64,000 nt of DNA from Lama guanicoe (Eukaryota), in the NCBI GenBank assembly GCA_013239625.1, contig MU053588.1:1808508-1872507 (forward strand), read 5' to 3'. The translations under genes were made by a program, and so were the position numbers. Positions 2,142 through 57,240 of this stretch are shown piece by piece; the stretch's first letter is position 1; every line of letters begins with the position of its first letter. The notes beneath the pieces are model-generated. The model did no database searches. It was not told the origin of the DNA and worked only from the letters and a program-made list of their open reading frames with translations.

Positions 2142-2935
2142 ATGAACAACCAGGAGCGGGCCCCAGGCCCCACCCCGGCCCGGACCTTGGCTTCGGTCCG
2201 GGCCTCAGTTCCGGCCCCGAGTTCGACTGTGGTCAGAAACTCCATCCCGGTCCGGACTCCGACTCTGGTCCGGACCTTGGCCCCGATCCGGACCCCAACT
2301 CCAGTCCGGACTCCAACTCCCGTCCAGACTCCAACTCCCGTCCGGACATCAACTCCCGTCCGGACCCCGACCCCTGTCCGGACCCCAACTCCAGTTCGAA
2401 CCCCGACTCCGGTTCGGATCCCAACACCGGTTCGGATCCCAACACCGGTCTGGACCGCAACTCCAGTCCGCTCCCCGACTCCGGTCAGGATCCCGACTCC
2501 AGCTGGGATCCCAACCCCGTCCCCGTCTCGGATCCTGGTCCCTGCCTTGGAACCCCTCCCAAACTCCGGCCTATCTTCGGATCAGCCCCCAGAACCTGAT
2601 CCCCAGCTCACTTTGTCGCCTGATCAGGATCCTGCGCCGACCCTGAGGGTGAAGCCCATCCCATCGTTCACCAATGGCTTCGATCCCACCCAAGAGCCCT
2701 TTCCTGCCCTTACTCCATTGGCCACCGATTTCCTGGGGTCCACCCTCGAGTCCAGCCCGAGGGCAGACCCATCGGCCACCAAGTTGATAGATTCCACTTC
2801 TGGACATAGCCTGGCGACGCCCATCCTTGGGACCATCCCGTTGGCCGTCACCTTACCGTTTTCTGCCAACGCATTCGCCTCCACCAGCGAGAACATCCAA
2901 GTGGACAACAAGATCATGATTCGTGTGGTCTACTG
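2142..2935 (+). CDS. SELENOV: Selenoprotein V, coding exon 1 (Pro/Thr-rich N-terminal extension to ...IRVVY-C)
   Basis: ORF MNNQERAPGPTPART...ENIQVDNKIMIRVVY matches SELENOV as I recall it. Donor TG|gtcagg at 2935/2936 (phase 2). CpG-rich. Confidence 0.96.
2248..2530 (+). repeat. Coding 18-bp tandem repeat (V-R-T/I-P-T-P units) in SELENOV exon 1
   Basis: Repeated gtccggaccccgactcc-like units; about 15 imperfect copies visible in the translation. Confidence 0.9.
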
Positions 2936-3687
2936 GTCAGGGGCTGTCCCCACCCACAGCGGCTTCCTCCCCCGGGGCAAGGGCTGGAGGGGGTAGGCGC
3001 CACCTGCCGTTCTCTTTGGAACTAGCGATCTTTGGGTTCACTCGTTCACTCTCCTGTGAACAGAGCCACCTGCTTTCCTCCCCTGTAGAGCAGAGGGCCC
3101 TGAGGGAGGACAAGGGGTGGGAGAACTTCAGAGGCTGGGTGTTCAGGGACAGTCTTTCTCAGGAGGTGGCGCTTAGGTTGCTACTTCTCAGTGAGGAGCC
3201 ACTAAGAAGAGTGGAGAAGGGGGTACGAGTAGGGAGATCAGGTCGCCCCTGTGATGGGGGTGGGAGCGTGGGGGATGGATGGTGGAGGGAGGGGGGAAAA
3301 GGGGAGATGAACAGCCAGTGCAAAGGCCGAAGGAAGCTGGCTTTAGTCTGCATTCCTGGTCCCAGAGCTGAATCTTTGTGTCCCCACAACAGTAACAGCA
3401 GTGACCTTCCTTTGCTCTTACTGAGACCCAGGGCTGGATGTGGCCGGGCGAGGGGCATTGTCTTCTCCCTAATCCCTGTGCCTCTCTCCTGCTCTAGAAG
3501 GTCCTTCTGTCCTGTTTTCTGTCTCTCCAACTCACAGCCATTTTCCCTTTCCCTATGTGGTGTGTCTCTTTCCCCATCTCCCCACCCCACCCCCTTTCTC
3601 TGCCCATTTCCTCCTTCCAAAAATTTTTTAAAAACTTTTTCCCTTCCAGTTTATTGAGATTCAATTGACATACAGCACTGTATATTT

Positions 3688-3796
3688 GAGGGGGATAATT
3701 AGGTTTATTTGTTTTAATGGAGGAACTGGAGATTGAACCAATGACCTCATGCATGCTAAGCATGCGCTCTACCACTGAGCTACACCCTCCTCCCCA
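3688..3796 (-). mobile_element. tRNA-derived SINE (vic-1-like)
   Basis: A/B-box tRNA head on the - strand. Confidence 0.88.
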
Positions 3797-4527
3797 TCTT
3801 CTCCTTTCTATCTCTCTGACTCTATGGATTCATTCATTGTTTTGTTTCTTCAACAACCATTTATTAAGTAAATCCCTGCTTATTCACTGCTGTGTCTCTG
3901 ATGCTGGCCTTGTTCTCAGTATCAGAGACATAGCAGTGAATAAGACAGATCCCTGTGGCATGGACATTCTGGTGTGGAGGAGCAGGGATGGACAATAAAT
4001 ATGACACATGGCAAATTATTTAGGATCTTAGAAGGTAATCAGTGCTATGGATCAAAGGCATCTTGGGAGGGGTGTCACAGTTTTAGCTGGGGTAGTCAGG
4101 AAGTCTTCACTGAGGAGGTGATCTATGAGCAAAGACTTGAAAGAGGGGAGAGGTGGAGCCTTGTGGATACCAAGGAAAGAGCATTCTGCATAGGGAATGG
4201 CCAGTGCAAAGGCCCTGGGGCAAAGCATGCCTGGAACATTAGGAAGAAGAGCTATGAAGTCCCTATGGCTGGACTAGAGTGGGCCGGGGTAGGGGGACAG
4301 TGCGAGGAGATGGAGCAGAGAGGTGGTAGGGCCAGATCCTGTGGGGGCTTGTGGACCACAGGGAGGACTTTTTTTGCTGAGTGAGGTGGCGTCTTGGGAG
4401 GCTTTTGAGCAGGGGAGGGATGGGATTTGACTTAGGTGTTCACAGTGTCCCTCTGGTTGGGGAGTTACTGAAGCAGTGTCTTCCCTCCATCTCTCTCTGC
4501 CTCCCTCCTCTTGCCCTTGACATCCAG

Positions 4528-4552
4528 TGGCCTCTGAAGCTATGGCCTTAGG
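4528..4552 (+). CDS. SELENOV: SELENOV coding exon 2 (C-G-L-U-S-Y-G-L-R); Sec TGA at 4535-4537, CxxU motif
   Basis: catccag|T GGC CTC TGA AGC TAT GGC CTT AGG|gtgagt. Phase matches exon 1. Rdx/SelW-family CxxU motif. Confidence 0.96.
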
Positions 4553-4697
4553 GTGAGTAGTTTTAACTTTGGAGGTGGGGGAGTGTGAACCATGAGGTCT
4601 GGAAGGAGTTCCTATTTCCCTTCCCTCAAGACCTGTGACCCCATGACCCTTTGGTCCTCTGATCCTGTGACCACACGGTCCCATCTCCTCCCCACAG

Positions 4698-4751
4698 TAT
4701 ATCCTACTGAAAAAGAGCCTGGAGCAGCAATTTCCAAATTGTCTACTCTTT
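4698..4751 (+). CDS. SELENOV: SELENOV coding exon 3 (YILLKKSLEQQFPNCLLF)
   Basis: cccacag|TAT...TTT|gtgagt, 54 nt, in frame. Confidence 0.96.
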
Positions 4752-4864
4752 GTGAGTGCACTGGTGGCCCAGGGGAATGGGTTGGGTATTCAGGCTGCAA
4801 GACCCCCAAAGGGGCTTTGAGGGGAGCTCTTAGCCTCTGCCAACACCTAATATTCCCTCCCCAG

Positions 4865-4939
4865 GAGGAGGACGTATCTGCCCAGGCTACAGGGGAGTTT
4901 GAAGTGTTTGTGGACGGGAAACTGGTCCATTCAAAGAAG
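4865..4939 (+). CDS. SELENOV: SELENOV coding exon 4 (EEDVSAQATGEFEVFVDGKLVHSKK)
   Basis: cccag|GAG...AAG|gtgatt, 75 nt. Carries the Rdx-family TGxFEV motif. Confidence 0.96.
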
Positions 4940-5033
4940 GTGATTCTGAGCAAGGGTCCTGGACAAGGAGGGAGGGTGGTGTTCCAGGGGGTGGGAGACA
5001 GACACATTTGTACTCTTTCCCCTCCGTGCCCAG

Positions 5034-5111
5034 AAAGGTGATGGCTTTGTGGATGAGACCAAGCTGCGGAAAATTGTGAGCCTTATCAATGAGGAGATCA
5101 AGAAAAGGTAG
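5034..5111 (+). CDS. SELENOV: SELENOV coding exon 5 (KGDGFVDETKLRKIVSLINEEIKKR*)
   Basis: cccag|AAA...TAG. Total CDS 1026 nt = 341 aa. Candidate donors at 5122 and 5133. Confidence 0.96.
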   Translation, partial: KGDGFVDETKLRKIVSLINEEIKKR

Positions 5112-5744
5112 CAGGCAACTGGTGAGCCGGAGGTGAGGTGGGAGGGGTGGAGACCGGGCTGTGGGTGGGTGGGTGGACAGGAGGCAGGGCCCTGTGTTGG
5201 AGTCAAAGACACCCTAGCCCCAGTCCTAGTGCAGCCAGTCCTCAGTGTTACAGTCAGGACAAATCATCTACATCCTTTTATGAACCTTGGTTTCCTCATC
5301 TATAAAATGGGGTTATTGAGATGATTTCATAAGATGCCTCTTATAAGGTAATAAATAGTGCATGGCTCAGAGTAGGGCGCAGTGTACTACAGTGATATAT
5401 TTTTTCCAAAAAAGCTTTTGTCTTTTTTTTAGCTTTTAGTTGTGTGTGTGTTTTGTTTTGTTTTGTTTGGTTTGGTTGTAAAGCTGTAATGGTATGTGAC
5501 TTTTCAACTTATAATTAAGTCGATTAAAATTAAGCACATTAAAAATTCCATTATTAGTCGCACTAGCCACATTTCAAGTGCTCACGGCCAGATGTGGCTG
5601 GCTGCCGTATTGGACAGTGCAGATGTAAAACATGGAAGCTGTCATTGCAGAAAGTTCTATTGCTAACATTGTTTTAAGATATTAAAGCATAGACACAATA
5701 ATTTATTTGCCACCAATACTGGATTTTTTAATATATTTTTAATT

Positions 5745-5995
5745 TAATTATAATTTTTAATGAAGGTACTGGGGATTGAACCCAGGACCTTGTGAGTGCC
5801 AAACACTTGCTCTACCAATGAGCTAAATGCATCCCCCAATCCTGGATTTTTTTTTTTCTTTGAGATGGGAAGGGAGGTAATTAAATTTTCTCTTTTTTTT
5901 ACTTTTTTTTAGAGGAGGTACTGGGGATTGAACCCAGGACCTTGTGCATGCTAAGCATGCACTCTACCACTTTGAGGTATACCCTCTCCCCTTCC
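5745..5995 (-). mobile_element. Two tandem tRNA-derived SINEs
   Basis: Two copies of gtactggggattgaacccaggacc. Confidence 0.88.
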
Positions 5996-7891
5996 CAATA
6001 CTGGACTTTTAAAACCACTTAGTACATAGGTATTTGTAGCTGCTACTAATTTAATACTTTGTCTGTTGCATATCTACCTTACAGTTGTTTTCAACTTTAT
6101 TGAGGTGTAAATGATGTGTAAGAAACAGTACATGTTTAAAGCATGTAAGTTGATGAGCTTTGACATACCAATACACCCATGAAACCAGCGCAAAACCAAG
6201 ATGATGAACATATCTGTCACCCCCCAAAGTTTCCTCAGCAATTTCTGTAATTTCTCCCACCCTCTCTCCTGTCCCAGGCCACCATTAACTTGCTCTCTGT
6301 CAGCATAGATTCGTTTGCAATTTCTAGAATTTTATGTAAGTGGAGGCTGTAATTTTTTCAAACCTTTATGGTGGAAATTTTTAGACATAAATACTAGTTG
6401 GGAGACTCGTACGATAAACTCCATGTACGCATCACCCAGGTCAACTAGTATAGCTTTCTCTTCTCTCATTTCATCTTCTCTCCTGCCTCCTTTTTTTTTT
6501 TGGCTCTGTCCTATTTTAAAGTATATTCCAGACCTCATGTTTTTCACCTGTATGCATCTCTAATAAATAAGTTTTTAAAACAGAAATACAAGGCCATTTT
6601 TTACACCCAACAAAAATTTTAAAATGTCTTAATACAATCTAATACCCATCCTAGGGTCTCAAAAAGATCTTTTTACAGTTAGTTTGTGGAATCAGGACAC
6701 AGACAAGGTTCATATGTTATATTAGCTGTTTTTAAAGAATTATAAAGAGGATTTTTGGAATCCTTAGTATGTGCCAGGCTTTTAGTAGGTCTCCTTTTAA
6801 GCAGCCAAGCTGGGGGTGAGGGGCAAGGGAGGCGGAGGAGAGATCTGTTTCTCACACTTGCAATATACAGAATATGATCGTAGTTATCTACGTAGCCTCC
6901 AGGGTCACAGAGACTTAGATTCAAATCCTGGATCCATCAGGCCCACAAAGCTGAAGTGGGGTGAAGTAGATTTGTGAGGTAGGAACCCTTTAGTGAGTGA
7001 CAGCTGTTGTTATTGGAATCAGTCAGGATGTTTCTAATTGCAGCAGAAAACTGTTCCAAATGGCTTAAGAAATAAAAAATTGGCTCATGGGAATAAGTCT
7101 AGGGGCTAATTTAGTTAGCTGCAGGCATGGCTGGGTCCAAGCACCAAAAGGTTGCCATTGGGAATCTGACTCTCCTTTACTCTGGGTTCTGCATTTTTCC
7201 ATGGGCTAACTTTACTCTCAGGCAGGCTTCCTCTCTCGGTGCCATAAATCCTGCCAAAGATTCCCACTGGCATAGCTTAAGTCACATGTCCATCCCTGAG
7301 CCAATCACTGAGGCCCAAGGGAATGCAGTGCTCTCTTTGGCCCATCGTGGGTCGTGTGTCTTTACCTCATTGGGTTTCATTGTATTTAGCAAGTATTTGC
7401 TGAGTACCTACTCTGTGCTGGACACTGTTCTAGATCCTGGGGATGATGATACAGCAGTTAACTAAACAGATACAAACCCCTGCCCTAGTGGAGCTGACGT
7501 TCTAGCCGGGGAGACAGACAATGAACAAGACATATAGGCAAATAGAAAACATTTAGGAGGAGATAAATGGTGGGAAGAAAAATGAATCAGGGAAGGGGCA
7601 CGGGTGCTGCTGGGAGTTTTCTGCAACTCTAAGTTGAGTGGTCAGGGAAGACCTCATTAGGAAGGTGATATTTAAACCCTTGAAGAATGTGCAAAGGCCC
7701 TGTGGTAGGAGTGTGTCTGGTGTGTTTGAAAATGGTGGAGAGACTCTACTGGGCATTGTAATCCATGGAAAGCATTAGAATGGTTCCTGACACATAGTAA
7801 GCCCTATAGATGCTATTTTTTTTTTTGGAGTTGTTGTTGTCATTCTCATTGTTATTAAACTTTTTTTTTCTTTCCTCTCTTCCCATCTCAG

Positions 7892-8290
7892 GAGCCTCAG
7901 CAGGATGGCGAGAAGGGCTGAAATGTTGCCAAGTCAGGTCCTTTTCTGATGGTGGCTGGGGCTGGGGTGGGGTCAGGGAGGGGTGAAGAGGGAAATACAT
8001 AGAGTTGGCCTCCCTGTGCTTTGGTCTGACTGTGTTTGCTGTCACCACATTCACTCCTGACATCTGAGGAAGTCACCTGCTACCTGCTACTGGGTTCCCA
8101 GCATCTCCTATGTCCTGGACCTGGGTGGTGGGGAGAGGAGGCCAGCTTTGAACATGAGGCTAGTCCTCTTGCTCCTGAGCTTTGCTCCTGATGGTCTAGC
8201 CTCAACTCCTCATGCTGTTGAGGTCAGCATCTTTCTTTTGTGGCTTTTTTATTTCCCCTGCCCGGGTTCAAAATATGTTTTGAAAACTTC
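7892..8290 (+). other. SELENOV: SELENOV terminal non-coding exon (3'UTR); 3' end uncertain
   Basis: Strong polypyrimidine tract and acceptor catctcag| at 7891, immediately followed by a SECIS-like hairpin. Confidence 0.75.
7893..7963 (+). promoter_or_regulatory. SECIS element of SELENOV, with variant core AUGG...UGAU
   Basis: Helix I AGCCTCAGC (7893-7901) pairs with GCTGGGGCT (7955-7963). Helix II GAGAAGGGCTG (7910-7920) pairs with CAGGTCCTTTTC (7935-7946). Apical AAA at 7921-7923; 3' core TGAT at 7947-7950; 5' core ATGG at 7905-7908. Confidence 0.85.
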
Positions 8291-9001
8291 CCATCTCATT
8301 GGCATTTTTAGAGGTTGAAAGAGAAATAGGGATTGTGGCAAGACATCCCAGACTTCACTTCACAGGTCTTAGAATCTCAGTGTTGGAGGGGGACTTGATG
8401 ACCTGGGAGAGGGACATTGTTGCATTCGGTGGGTATTGATGAACCCTCTACCCTGCACCTGGCTCCGGGGGGTCACTGGGCATGTGCCAGGAGGTCCAGG
8501 CAAGGCATGGGAATCAGAACTTTACCACGGAGTCACTCTGTGACCTCCAACAAGGGCTGCCACCTCTCTGAATCTCAATTTCCTCCTCTGTCAAATGATG
8601 GTTGTAATTCTCCTTAATCATAAAATTTCCAAAGTCTGGCACAGAATATGTAAGTTTCGGTCAGACATAGATTTCAATCAGGAGTGCTCTTGCCGGCAAG
8701 TAGCAGCAAACTGGACTGCCAGTGGCTCACACCATAGGAAAAACAAATTGTTTTCCTTGTGAACTGGTCGGAGGCGGCTGGAGTCAGCCAGCTGTCCAAC
8801 TATGCCGTCAGGGACCCATGGTTTTTCTCTGTTTCTTCTCTGCCATCATTAAGGTATGACAGTGGGCTGGCTCTGGGGCTCATGCATGTTGTTTCATTGT
8901 TGCACCTTTACCCATTACGTCTGTATTCCAGGCGGAAGAGGGTTGAAGAAGGTAAGGACACGCCTGCTGGACCACTGTCTTTTTTAGGAAAGCAAAACTT
9001 G

Positions 9002-9093
9002 GTGGGGCAGTGGTATAGCTCAGTGGTAAAAAGCATGCTTAGCATGTAGGAGGTCCTGGGTTCAATCCCCAGTACCTCTTTAAAAGAAAAAAA
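9002..9093 (+). mobile_element. tRNA-derived SINE with TSD aaagcaaaactt
   Basis: gtatagctcagtggta...ggttcaatccccagtacc. Confidence 0.9.
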
Positions 9094-15837: not shown

Positions 15838-15965
15838 TTTATTTTGGAGGGAGGTAATTACATTTATTTATTTTAATTATTATTTTTTAAATGGAGGTAC
15901 TGGGGATTGAACCCAGGACCTCACGCATGCTAAGCATGTGCTCTACCACTGAGCTATACCCTCCC
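15838..15965 (-). mobile_element. tRNA-derived SINE nested in L1
   Basis: Flanked by a gaaaaataccatat duplication. Confidence 0.88.
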
Positions 15966-18354: not shown

Positions 18355-19014
18355 CTATTCTCTACTTATAAACTTATCACAACCAAGTTCTTCTATCAGA
18401 GGATTGATAACTTCAGATGCAGTCAGAGCTATAGTCAATGTTAAAACATCAAAATCCATCCTCCGAGGATTCCGCTGATACTCGGCATCAAACGCCGCTT
18501 CCCTGGCTCTGCAGGCTTCCACGAATCTCCTGCGGCGTTCTTCAAGCTCCTGTATTCTGCCCGGAGCAATCGGGTAGTTTTCCAGATAGTGGCGGAGGAA
18601 CTGCTGGTAATTAATTCCTAAAACTCGAAGCGGGTGACGGAGACGGAGATACGGCAACGCAGCCAGGCCTGGGCCGTTCCCCGGCCTGGACCGGGGTCTG
18701 CCCTCAGGCCCCTCTTCTTCCGCTGGGTCCTCCAACAATCGGGCGACCTCTGCCATCCGGGCGTCCCTGGCCGCGGCCACGGGACCCTCCCTGGGCGCCG
18801 CCATCGGACCTTCCCTGGCCGCCGCCATCGGACCTTCCCTCGGCACCGCCATCGGAACTTCCCTGGCCGCCGCCATCGGATCTTCCCTGGCCTCCACAGG
18901 CGGCGCCAGGGCTGGCTCCCGCCTCCCTCTGCCTACCTCCGCCTGCGGGATGTCACCGTTGTCATTCGCCGCGTCCGTCGACGGGACACTGCTGTCTGCG
19001 GGCAGCTTGGACAT
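18355..19014 (-). CDS. EID2: EP300-interacting inhibitor of differentiation 2, intronless, 219 aa
   Basis: [11 protein letters not shown]...[48 protein letters not shown]...[14 protein letters not shown] matches EID2. Syntenic next to SELENOV. Confidence 0.97.
18751..18892 (-). repeat. Coding 24-bp tandem repeat ([12 protein letters not shown], about 6 units) in EID2
   Basis: Repeated gccatcggaccttccctggccgcc units on the + strand. Confidence 0.9.
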
Positions 19015-34342: not shown

Positions 34343-35796
34343 CTGAAAGAGAAAATGTGTCAGAAATACAGTATGCCATCAAACAAACTCAGTCTTCCTT
34401 TCTGTTTCTGCCCTAGTATACACACCATCTACTAGGAAAACCCCTTCTCACACTTCAAAACCTGGTAGATATGCTGCTTTTTTATCGACTACGTTTGTGA
34501 CTCTTTTGGAGTCTTGTTCACTCTATTTTCGGTACTTCTCTTATTCCTCCAGTGAGGTTCTACCACTGTCTGTTGCATGGTCTATATTTGTTTGGCGTTT
34601 CCTCTCACTTCAAAGATTCTCATGGCCAAGAATTGTCTCTCATGAATCTTGAATCCCTGTATCTTGCCCAGAGCATCACAGGCTGAATGGTTGACAAGTG
34701 TTCATTGAATGCATACATCTCAGTTCTGCAAATCTTTGCTGCCATTTACTCTGATGACCCAGTTTTTCCTTTGAGTAGCCCAGATCTGGAGTGATGGTGT
34801 GAAGAATGAAACTCAAGTGATCTTAAAGAAGTAGAAGCGTACATATAGCTAAAAAATAGTATATTATTTTAACAGCTTATAAACATATGAAATGATGCTT
34901 CACCTTGGTCTTAAAAATGTTATTGTTTAGCCTAGCTATTTAAAAAGTTCAGACTGTTTGAACATACTCTTTGTTGGTGAGGCTGTGGAGAAGCAGTCAC
35001 TTTTTAGGTGTTCATTTGTCATATTTAAAATGCATGTGCTTTTTGAATCAGTTCCTCCAGTGTTAAGTACTGGGAAGTTGATAGTGACAAAAGTGTGGTA
35101 TCAAAACCGTAATGCGGCATCATTTGTGAGAGCAGAATATTGGAAACAACCTAAGTGTGCGTTAATAAAGGTCAAGTTAGATCATGTTCGGTAATCCTTC
35201 TACTGGAATAATATGCAAACATTAAATAATGATAGAGCATAATGGATAGAAGGATTTCTCTATGATACATTCTTTGACTGCAAATAAACTCTAGTCCTCA
35301 TGGTATAATATATAGAGAAACTTACAACACTGTTTAAAAATAAATGAAAGTACATATAAGGTAGACAGGTGGAGGTACTTGTATAAGCGTGTATTATCTC
35401 TGGAAGAAACGTAAAGAAACTAGGAACAGTTGTGCTGGCTTGAGAATGAGAGAAAGACTTAATTTGGGGTGGATCATGATTATTCGTATGCATATTTTAA
35501 TCATTTAGCTACACAAAAATTCAAATAATAACAGCATAGGTAGAAATAACTGTGGGTGAAGTCAGAGGAAATTCTCCACTTTGAGGGAAATGGCATGTGA
35601 GCTGATCTTGACCCTGATTAGATTTGGGAAAAGACCTGAGGATGGTGGTACAGGCAGAGGGTGCTTTGTCATTAAAGGGGCAAGAGTAGTTATGGGAGGT
35701 GGATCCTGAAGGACCCTGGGGCAAGCCAGGAAGGGAGAGCTGTGTCCTGTGAGGCCTGTGGAGGCTGTGGACCTGATGGTTCCTGGGCACCCTTAC

Positions 35797-36007
35797 CTGG
35801 TACTCATTTTGTAGCACCAAGATGTGCAGTTCAAATTCTTGGCCCTCCACAAAGGGCACTTCGCAGGATGAAACCTCGCAGTTCCAACTCCCATTCTGAC
35901 GGCTGTTTAGCTTCACAGATATGCCAAAGTACACTCGGAAATGGAAAGCGATGTCCGAGTTCTCATCAGTTCCAGTATGGAAATCCACCTGCATTTGTGG
36001 GTGCTTG
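35797..36007 (-). CDS. Galectin coding exon 3 (KHPQMQVDFHTGTDENSDIAFHFRVYFG...WNCE...PFVEGQEFELHILVLQNEYQ)
   Basis: catcag|C...CAG|gtaagg, 211 nt; galectin carbohydrate-recognition-domain motifs. Confidence 0.95.
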
Positions 36008-36505
36008 CTGATGGGCAAAGCACATAGCATGTTGAACAGGGTCCCTTTCTTGTGGGGGACCCACATTTGACATACACATACACGTTCTTTCCCAACTCCT
36101 CCCTGGTAGAAGGGAGGCCTTCCTGGGGGATATTATAATCCTTGTTCTGAGGGGCTGCTTAAGCTCATCCTGCCCAGGGTGGAGAGATGCCCTGTTCCTT
36201 GGCCCAAGACTCAAATTGGGCAGCAGTCACTGGCCTGGCCCTACCCATGGCTCATCCCCCGGCAAGCCTGTGCCCCTTGATAAAGAGCCACAGCCCTGAC
36301 TCCTTTCCCCAGACCCCACAGCCTGCCAGCAGTCCTGCACCTGTAGGCTTAATGCCTGATACCAGAGGGTCTCCAGGACCTGCACCTGCATGGTGGTGCC
36401 ATTATGCTAGTTATGCATTTTAACATCACTCGTACATGAAGTGACCCCCAACTCTGATATTATCACTTCTCCTTCCCCTCCCCACCCCTGAAATAGAGTA
36501 CCCAC

Positions 36506-42357: not shown

Positions 42358-42516
42358 TTTGTTTTTCCTTTTAAGCTTATTTATTTATTTTTGGTGGGGA
42401 GAGGTAATTACATTTATTTAGTACTCATTTATTCTTGGAGGAGGTACTGGGGATTGAACCCAGGACCTCATGCATGCTAAGCATGCACTCTGCCACTGAG
42501 CTACGCCCTCCCCCCT
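42358..42516 (-). mobile_element. tRNA-derived SINE with TSD aatgc(t/c)ctcttgttta
   Basis: Family consensus match plus TSD. Confidence 0.9.
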
Positions 42517-55135: not shown

Positions 55136-57224
55136 TTTTTTAACATTTTTTATTGATCTATAATCATTTCACAATGTTGTGTCAAATTCCAGTGTTCAGC
55201 ACAATCTTTCAGCAATTCATGGACATATACACACTCATTGTCACATTTTTTTCTCTGTGAGTTATCATAACATTTTGTGTATATTTCCCTGTGCTATATA
55301 GTGTAATCTCGTTTATCTGTTCTACAATTTTGAAATCCCAGTCTATACCTTCCCACCCTCCACCCCCCTGGTAACCACAAGTCTGTATTCTCTGTCTGTG
55401 AGTCTATTTCTGTCCTGTATTTATGCTTTGTTTTTGTTTGCTTGTTTGTTTTTGTTTTTGTTTTTTAGATTCCACATATGAGCGATCTCATATGTTATTT
55501 TTCTTTCTCTTTCTGGCTTACTTCACTTAGAATGACATTCTCTAGGAGCATCCATGTTGCTGCAAATGGCATTATGTTGTCGGTTTTTATGGCTGAGTAG
55601 TATTCCATCATATAAATATACCACATCTTCTTTATCCAGTCACCTGTTGATGGACATTTAGGCTGTTTCCATGTTTTGGCTATTGTAAATAGTGCTGCTA
55701 TGAACATTGGGGTGCAGGTGTCATCCTGAAGTAGATTTCCTTCTGGATGCAAGCCCAGGAGTGGGATTCCTGGGTCATATGGTAAGTCTATTCCTAGTCT
55801 TTTGAGGAATCTCCACACTGTTTTCCACAGTGGCTGCACCAAACTGCATTCCCACCAGCAGTGTAGGAGGGTTCCCCTTTCTCCACAGCCTCTCCAGCAT
55901 TTGTCATTTTTGGATTTTTGAATGACGGCCATTCTGACTGGTGTGAGGTGATACCTCATTGTAGTTTTGATTTGCATTTCTCTGATAATTAGTGATATTG
56001 AGCATTTTTTCATGTGCTTTTTGATCATTTGTATGTCTTCCTTGGAGAATTGCTTGTTTAGGTCTTCTGCCCATTTTTGGATTGGGTTGTTTATTTTTTT
56101 CTTATTGAGTCGTATGAGCTGCTTATATATTTTGGAGATCAAGCCTTTGTCGGTTTCACTTGCAAAAATTTTCTCCCATTCCGTAGGTTTTCTTCTTGTT
56201 TTATTTCTGGTTTCCTTTGCTCTGCAGAAGCTTGTAAGTTTCATTAGGTCCCATTTGTTTATTCTTGCTTTTATTTCTTCTAGGAGAAAATTTTTGAAAT
56301 GTATGTCAGATAATGTTTTGCCTATGTTTTCCTCTAGGAGGTTTATTGTATCTTGTCTTATGTTTAAGTCTTTAATCCATTTTGAGTTGATTTTTGTATA
56401 TGGTGTAAGGGTGTGTTCTAGCTTCATTGTTTTACATGCTGCTGTCCAGTTTTCCCAACACCATTTGCTGAAGAGACTGTCTTTATTCCATTGTATATTC
56501 TTGCCTCCTTTGTCGAAGATGAGTTGACCAAAAGTTTGTGGGTTCATTTCTGGGCTCTCTATTCTGTTCCATTGGTCTATATGTCTGTTTTAGTACCAAT
56601 ACCATGCTGTCTTGATGACTGTAGCTCTATAGTATTGTCTGAAGTCTGGGAGAGTTATTCCTCCAGCCTCTTTCTTTCTCTTCAGTAATGCTTTAGCAAT
56701 TCTAGGTCTTTGATGGTTCCATATAAATTTTATTATGATTTGTTCTAGTTCTGTGAAATATGTCCTGGGTAATTGGATAGGGATTGCATTAAATCTGTAG
56801 ATTGCCTTGGGCAGTGTGACCATTTTAACAATATTGATTCTTCCAATCCAAGAGCATGGAATATCTTTCCATTTTTTAAAGTCTTCTTTAATTTCCTTCA
56901 TCAATGGTTTATAGTTTTCTGTGTATAATTCTTTCACCTCCTTGGTTAGATTTATTCCCAGATATTTTATTACTTTGGGTGCTATTTTAAAGGGGATTGT
57001 TTCTTTACTTTCTTTTTCTGTTGATTTATCGTTAGTGTAAAGAAATGCAACTGATTTTTGAACGTTGATTTTGTAACCTGCTACCTTGCTGAATTCTTCA
57101 GTCAGCTCTAGTAGCTTTTGTGTGGATCTTTTAGGGTTTTCTAAATATAGTAACATGTCATCAGCATATAATGACACTTTTACCTCTTCTTTTCCAATTT
57201 GGATCCCTTTTATTTCTTTCTCTT
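55136..57224 (-). mobile_element. Young 5'-truncated LINE-1 (ORF2 C-terminal half, 3'UTR, polyA)
   Basis: ORFs 56590-57237 and 55495-56547 are L1 ORF2 (YADDM RT motif; CWRGC...HCWWEC), in the same frame and split by one TAA. Flanked by TSD tagatgcaggcatt. Confidence 0.97.
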
Positions 57225-57240
57225 TAGATGCAGGCATTCT

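Follow-up and report, generated by a model that had tools for sequence, protein, structure and literature searches.

Results

A complete six-exon SELENOV gene

We analysed a window of 64 kb of Lama guanicoe DNA, the whole stretch of 64,000 nucleotides to which all positions below refer. By its predicted exons, the SELENOV gene that it holds on the forward strand is complete, with six exons spanning 2142-8020 (Table 1). A previous sequence-only reading of the window had named the gene SELENOV, and protein searches bear the name out. Querying with exon 1 returned 30 protein matches at E ≤ 0.001, the top 22 of them mammalian and 16 of those 22 named selenoprotein V (best E 6e-54); the best named matches are the selenoprotein V of many mammals. 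Over 59 C-terminal residues, the window matches with 100% identity a Camelus ferus protein (P0002) that carries the Rdx domain (Pfam PF10262, E 2.7e-12).

Splice sites were predicted from the sequence only. Joining the end of exon 1 (TAC TG/gt) to the start of exon 2 (T GGC CTC TGA) yields Cys-Gly-Leu-Sec (CGLU) at codons 265-268. The spliced coding sequence of 1026 nt contains no frameshift or extra stop and keeps TGA in frame at codon 268, in agreement with the earlier claim of an intact Sec codon and intact exons. Exon 1 contributes 264 Pro-rich residues, which falls inside the 228-334 residues given in PMC3316567. Its identity to 15 full-coverage orthologues is 69-84% across the last 68 residues (of 21 aligned sequences, the C. 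ferus protein was set aside along with five whose coverage was incomplete or absent), and the window keeps 26 of the 26 columns that are invariant among these 15. Only two of its residues are absent from all 15, and both are conservative (V for R/I and L for V/I/A).

Two further observations concern the protein ends. Within exon 1, an 18-nt tandem repeat at 2247-2500 (plus strand; 14.1 copies, 77% matches) encodes reiterated P-V-R-T-P-T hexapeptides; the N-terminal domain is described in the literature as the least conserved part of the protein. The C. ferus entry, a hypothetical protein, shows a weak MNNL (Notch-ligand N-terminal) match (E 4e-4, below the cut-off) fused to the SELENOV Rdx domain. 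Its gene model reads past the real stop, a mis-annotation of a kind common for selenoprotein genes.

The predicted exons follow the SelV layout set out in PMC3316567, in which the coding sequence occupies exons 1-5 of six and exon 6 is 3'UTR with the SECIS. The averages given there are 13 nt between the start of exon 6 and its SECIS core, and 152 nt for the 3'UTR. In this gene the hairpin begins 1 nt into the last exon and the core, at 7905, lies 13 nt into it, equal to the published average. The exon 5 donor is predicted to be CTG/gtgagc at 5121/5122. We placed the 3' end of exon 6 approximately, from a presumed AATACA poly(A) signal; if that signal is used, the 3'UTR would be ~136-140 nt.

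Table 1 Features of the SELENOV gene and of its SECIS-derived hairpin
Feature	Position	Strand	Basis
SELENOV exon 1	2142..2935	+	ATG, Pro-rich N-terminal domain; ends TAC TG/gtcagg (first two bases of Cys codon 265)
SELENOV exon 2	4528..4552	+	T-GGC-CTC-TGA-AGC-TAT-GGC-CTT-AGG/gtgagt; CGLU redox motif, aligned to CGL(U/C/-)SY of orthologues
Sec codon TGA (codon 268)	4535..4537	+	in frame in spliced coding sequence of 1026 nt
SELENOV exon 3 (YILLKKSLEQQFPNCLLF)	4698..4751	+	read from the window, aligned with orthologues
SELENOV exon 4 (EEDVSAQATGEFEVFVDGKLVHSKK)	4865..4939	+	read from the window, aligned with orthologues
SELENOV exon 5	5034..5121	+	codes to AGG at 5108, TAG at 5109-5111, then 10 nt of 3'UTR
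SELENOV exon 6 (3'UTR only)	7892..8020	+	start after polypyrimidine tract and AG (7890-7891), read from the sequence
SELENOV SECIS-derived hairpin	7893..7963	+	profile match, fold, pair count, SELENOW alignment
Helix I, 5' arm	7893..7901	+	pairs with 7955-7963; 9 bp (8 Watson-Crick, 1 G-U)
5' core AUGG (consensus AUGA)	7905..7908	+	direct reading, profile, SELENOW alignment
Deviant G	7908..7908	+	opposite G7948, in place of the expected A.G sheared pair
Helix II, 5' arm	7910..7919	+	pairs with 7937-7946; 10 contiguous bp (7 Watson-Crick, 3 G-U)
Apical AAA motif	7921..7923	+	aligned to AAA of the model; C7909 to A7921 spacing 11 nt
Helix II, 3' arm	7937..7946	+	pair count
3' core UGAU (U7947 G7948 A7949 U7950), canonical KGAW	7947..7950	+	direct reading
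Helix I, 3' arm	7955..7963	+	pair count
AATACA poly(A)-signal variant	7994..7999	+	sole variant in 7892-8618, followed by CATAAA at 8619

Elsewhere in the window, the Rfam tRNA model has 16 gathering-level matches, which share near-identical heads (GAGGGTATAGCTCAGTGGTAGAGC...; for example 15892-15963, 42439-42510 and 3719-3789 on the minus strand and 9009-9080 on the plus strand). These resemble tRNA-derived SINE copies, not tRNA genes. On the minus strand, residues 18-104 of a 181-aa ORF (35524-36066) match the galactoside-binding lectin domain (Pfam PF00337, E 2e-18); the ORF probably represents a galectin gene, as an exon or as a copy, downstream of SELENOV. Also on that strand, a single-exon ORF of 219 aa (18358-19014) contains REGPMAA-like repeats and gave no Pfam match at E ≤ 0.01; going by the human neighbourhood, we take it that this may be an EID2-like gene. 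Two long minus-strand ORFs of 350 and 215 aa at 55495-57237 look by eye like LINE ORF2 pieces.

A SECIS hairpin with one deviant core base

The sequence-only reading had described an AUGG core, with G at 7908, in a hairpin that otherwise has its SECIS parts. Direct reading of the 5' core (A7905 U7906 G7907 G7908 C7909), alignment to the profile and a pair count all confirm this description. Its helix I of 9 bp stands; for helix II it gave ~11 bp, and we counted 10. Across the core, the facing bases are U7906/U7950, G7907/A7949, G7908/G7948 and C7909/U7947.

The hairpin shares much with the SECIS consensus (RF00031 and PMC3753652): a stem-loop of helix I, internal loop, helix II and apical loop, an unpaired AAR, here AAA, a 3' KGAW core, and a site in the 3'UTR. 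The gene in which it sits has an in-frame UGA that aligns with the Sec or Cys of homologues. From that UGA to the core, the spliced mRNA measures 245 nt, against a published range of 207-5207 nt. The difference is in the 5' core: the consensus is UGAN, with tandem sheared G.A/A.G pairs, whereas the SELENOV hairpin has UGGC, with G7908.G7948 as the second pair, and so has no GA-AG tandem.

Against the Rfam model SECIS_1 (RF00031), the hairpin matched end to end at 7896-7960 on the plus strand (model positions 1-64), with AUGG aligned to the consensus AUGA. The match scored 23.8 bits; its E-value was 0.17 when 3 kb were searched and 1.4 over 24 kb. This is below the Rfam gathering score of 35 bits, and the hairpin is therefore missing from a gathering-level scan of the whole window; judged by score alone, the match is marginal. 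The minimum free energy fold of 7885-7970 reaches -34.2 kcal/mol (z = -2.0), a value equalled by 6 of 200 shuffles.

Two alternative registers were tried and rejected. Shifts of -3 (GGAU at 7903) and +3 (CGAG at 7909) leave 6 scattered pairs each, compared with 10 contiguous pairs in the canonical register, which upholds the earlier remark that both disrupt helix II. The same reading had found no second SECIS downstream, and our searches concur: no other SECIS_1 match at E ≤ 10 on either strand of 1-24000, and no SECIS at gathering level anywhere in the 64 kb window.

Homology with the SELENOW SECIS

We then compared the hairpin with other SECIS elements of the same genome. One of them (L004, G000:C6946:2116032-2116099; 44.3 bits) has SELENOW-like exons 3-5 ~1.1 kb upstream (in L040), and we assigned it to the paralogous SELENOW on that ground. 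When the two elements are aligned, 59 of 106 columns are invariant, including the blocks GAAGG.CTGAAATGT, GGTCCTT and CTGATG, and ATGAC of SELENOW stands over ATGGC of SELENOV. As described for vertebrate SelV and SelW in PMC3316567, both lie in a sixth exon of 3'UTR only, and both have AAA and a 3' UGAU. They differ in that SELENOW has ATGA and scores 44.3 bits, whereas SELENOV has ATGG and scores 23.8 bits.

Scanning the whole genome with RF00031 gave 14 SECIS_1 matches besides the SELENOV hairpin, at 25.7-45.2 bits. The 5' core reads TGA in 14 of 14 (ATGA in 13, GTGA in one); this is not a census, because only 130 of 39765 first-look candidates were scored. Together with the SELENOW alignment, these matches indicate that the departure of the SELENOV SECIS is one A-to-G difference in an element that, as read from its bases, is otherwise orthodox.

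Exon position, the 13-nt core spacing and homology with the SELENOW SECIS make the hairpin more than a chance match. Given its position, that homology and the lack of a competitor, we read 7893-7963 as the true SELENOV SECIS by descent. Since it lacks the GA-AG core and stays below the Rfam threshold, we class it as a SECIS-derived hairpin whose core is broken.

The genome scan also brought up repeated elements. Two SECIS_1 matches on different contigs (L005, G000:C4287:17444-17509, and L006, C7292:5410484-5410549; 38.9 bits) are identical over 66 nt and represent either a recent duplication or one locus assembled twice. Four others (L007, L012, L013 and L014) are nearly one sequence (CCATGA.GGTGTTTCCT.TAAACCTGC.TGGAG...), and two of the group lie 24 kb apart on contig C55222 (L012, with L002 nearby). 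These four may be a small copy family or processed pseudogenes of one selenoprotein 3'UTR.

G7908 in sequencing runs

Whether G7908 is genuine was addressed indirectly, by searching sequencing runs for 31-letter words sampled from 7300-8900. All listed runs that hold such words are near-identical to the window. Eight runs from eight samples, spread over three organism labels (A, B and C) and two studies (P1 and P2), hold 1.00 of the 157 sampled words. About 1 in 10 words was sampled (157 of 1571); if the sampling is assumed to be random, some sampled word covers 7908 with a chance of ~96%, and none does with a chance of ~4%. The presence of every sampled word in eight runs makes an assembly error unlikely, although these full-share runs are not all independent, being flagged as possible sources of the DNA. 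Six more runs (X9-X14; labels D, E and F) hold 0.96-0.99 of the words; the missing ones may lie anywhere in 7300-8900. Overall, G7908 is probably real and not an assembly error.

We also looked for the position in other sequence collections. A two-block SECIS pattern designed for SELENOV orthologue DNA gave 0 matches in metagenome contigs and 0 in genome contigs. A looser 21-nt pattern picked up 24 metagenome stretches, none of which continues like a SECIS, and we took these as chance matches. In one plus-strand frame, the TGG at 7906-7908 would become TGA were 7908 an A. An exact protein look-up of the 58-aa ORF over 7906-7908, one shorter form of it and three minus-strand ORF forms found none of them in the collection.

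Discussion

The hairpin in exon 6 of SELENOV departs from the SECIS consensus at a base on which published work places strict demands. The GA/AG tandem is stated to be 'needed for SBP2 binding' in PMC1874613, where SBP2 SELEX yielded UGAU in every selected RNA. PMC3316567 speaks of 'invariant GA/GA pairs' in vertebrate SECIS elements and discusses no exceptions beyond SelM and SelO with their CC apical loops. According to PMC3753652, the core consensus is UGAN/KGAW and SECISearch3 drops candidates with 'no GA-AG in the core'; going by that stated filter, it would discard the SELENOV hairpin. Recoding drops dramatically when AUGA is deleted (PMC2761289), and tandem-pair mutations abrogate binding of L30 (PMC3706390).

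Kink-turn geometry offers a second view of the same base. As laid out in PMC5061560, a standard simple kink-turn has G.A at 1b.1n and A.G at 2b.2n, and the conserved 2b adenine accepts the key cross-strand hydrogen bond, from O2' of -1n; natural non-standard kink-turns mostly vary at 2n. Guided by PMC1874613, we infer that G7907 corresponds to 1b and G7908 to 2b, in which case the 2b position of the SELENOV hairpin would hold G. Non-standard kink-turns of the Kt-23 type likewise leave the tandem G.A/A.G at 2b.2n, but there 2n varies and A2b stays (PMC5061560), whereas under our mapping 2n (G7948) stays here and 2b becomes G. In the hairpin itself, G7908 faces G7948, so that the second sheared pair (A.G) would not form.

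Natural departures from the AUGA_AA_GA consensus that work include GGGA in Toxoplasma, GUGA in C. elegans TrxR and the CC loops of SelM and SelO. Both the GGGA and the GUGA core retain the tandem-pair G and A. In each of these variants the core A is unchanged, unlike in the SELENOV hairpin. The CC forms alter the apical loop only (PMC3316567).

We set the chance at about even that G7908 is a genuine substitution and that it disables Sec insertion or strongly weakens it, as an early step in the loss of SELENOV as a selenoprotein. The published core, SELEX, deletion, L30 and kink-turn results are the grounds for regarding the element as disabled or much weakened. With the A.G pair prevented and the equivalent of kink-turn A2b presumably lost, the A-to-G change at 7908 would likely abolish or strongly weaken SECISBP2 binding. 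The UGA at codon 268 would then mostly be read as stop, leaving 267 residues with the Pro-rich domain only. Such a stop would lie 232 nt upstream of the last junction, between exons 5 and 6; by the usual 50-55-nt rule of nonsense-mediated decay, this would open the mRNA to decay. The normal TAG, 10 nt before the same junction, would not trigger it. Since neither the coding sequence nor any other part of the hairpin shows decay, the change is probably of recent origin.

Points against a disabling substitution come from that same integrity. The coding sequence shows no relaxation, judged by its invariant columns and open frame, and the intact remainder of the hairpin fits continued selection and a young mutation equally. 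Two reproductive-system RNA-seq runs hold 0.36 and 0.34 of the sampled words; these shares, like those of all RNA runs (X15-X20), may fall anywhere within 7300-8900 and are not taken as evidence of expression. If such words came from exon 6, the mRNA would not be wholly removed by decay.

The same observations feed an alternative that we consider unlikely, namely that the hairpin is a functional non-canonical SECIS: SECISBP2 and L30 would still bind a core of G.A followed by G.G, perhaps more weakly, and Sec-containing SELENOV would be made in the camel testis. Both helices, the AAA at the right distance and the 3' UGAU are intact, the Rdx domain keeps all its orthologue-invariant columns with CGLU in place, and about a third of the sampled words is present in the reproductive-system RNA runs. 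The very wide range of human SECIS activities reported in PMC2761289 suggests that weak elements are tolerated, and non-standard kink-turns can fold in context or with protein (PMC5061560). However, the non-standard kink-turns documented there change 2n and not the 2b adenine, the SELEX cores were UGAU only (PMC1874613), and a young disabling mutation predicts an intact coding sequence just as well. Nor did the literature help: our search found no paper with both SECIS and AUGG, no published measurement of an AUGA-to-AUGG change and, among the papers listed, no title on camel selenoproteins. The proposal that AUGG might already be the documented state of SELENOV orthologues is thus unsupported.

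Less probable still is that G7908 is not the normal state of the species, either through an assembly or consensus error or as a rare or heterozygous allele in the animal sequenced, whose usual counterpart is AUGA. The assembly is fragmented (2.05 Gb in 55231 contigs), contigs drop minor alleles, and runs X9-X14 lack 1-4% of the sampled words, which may lie anywhere within 7300-8900. Were the error private to the assembly, run contigs that were assembled independently would nonetheless lack the words over 7908, unless 7908 went uncovered (~4%, under the sampling assumption), and eight runs retain every word, a weight lessened by their partial dependence. Finally, Sec insertion could depend on a different SECIS, located in a longer 3'UTR or in some alternative last exon, with 7893-7963 as a relic. 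A longer 3'UTR is conceivable, with the next poly(A) signal after AATACA being CATAAA at 8619, and the RNA runs hold more words of 7300-8900 than a 130-nt exon would give. This idea is close to refuted: 7893-7963 is the sole SECIS_1 match in the ranges searched, and its exon start and 13-nt core spacing match the published SelV architecture (PMC3316567). A rescue element for a disabled SECIS is missing from those ranges too. The sequence-only reading had left three readings unranked, functional, losing recoding, or an allele or assembly error; our results shift their balance without settling it, and an error is made unlikely, if indirectly, by the eight runs.

A loss of Sec-containing SELENOV would have precedents. 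The gene is reported lost in gorilla (PMC3316567) and in gorilla and Odontoceti (PMC13134290), and it is described as the least conserved mammalian selenoprotein, young and testis-specific (PMC13134290 and PMC3316567). On these grounds SELENOV appears dispensable in evolution. Under a disabling substitution, the lineage of this window would also stop making Sec-SELENOV from the same gene, with a difference in route: the gorilla loss is stated to be a deletion (PMC3316567), whereas SELENOV here is whole and one SECIS base differs. Neither PMC3316567 nor PMC13134290 names a camelid as a SELENOV loss, and camel or Camelidae occurs 0 times in the main text of the latter.

Among the features of eukaryotic SECIS elements, the GA/AG tandem is the one regarded as invariant, and it serves as a filter in prediction tools. 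An apparently fixed natural A-to-G change within the tandem, in a gene that is otherwise whole, amounts to a ready-made experiment. If Sec insertion persists, the recognition rules of SECISBP2 need widening. The AUGG hairpin would then be the first natural SECIS to lack the GA/AG tandem, SECISBP2 and L30 could use a core of G.A plus G.G, and search filters that demand GA-AG would miss real elements. If Sec insertion fails, the first step of a selenoprotein loss would be dated, and that loss would have come through a regulatory point mutation invisible to homology-based gene prediction. Camels would then join gorilla and toothed whales as lineages giving up SELENOV.
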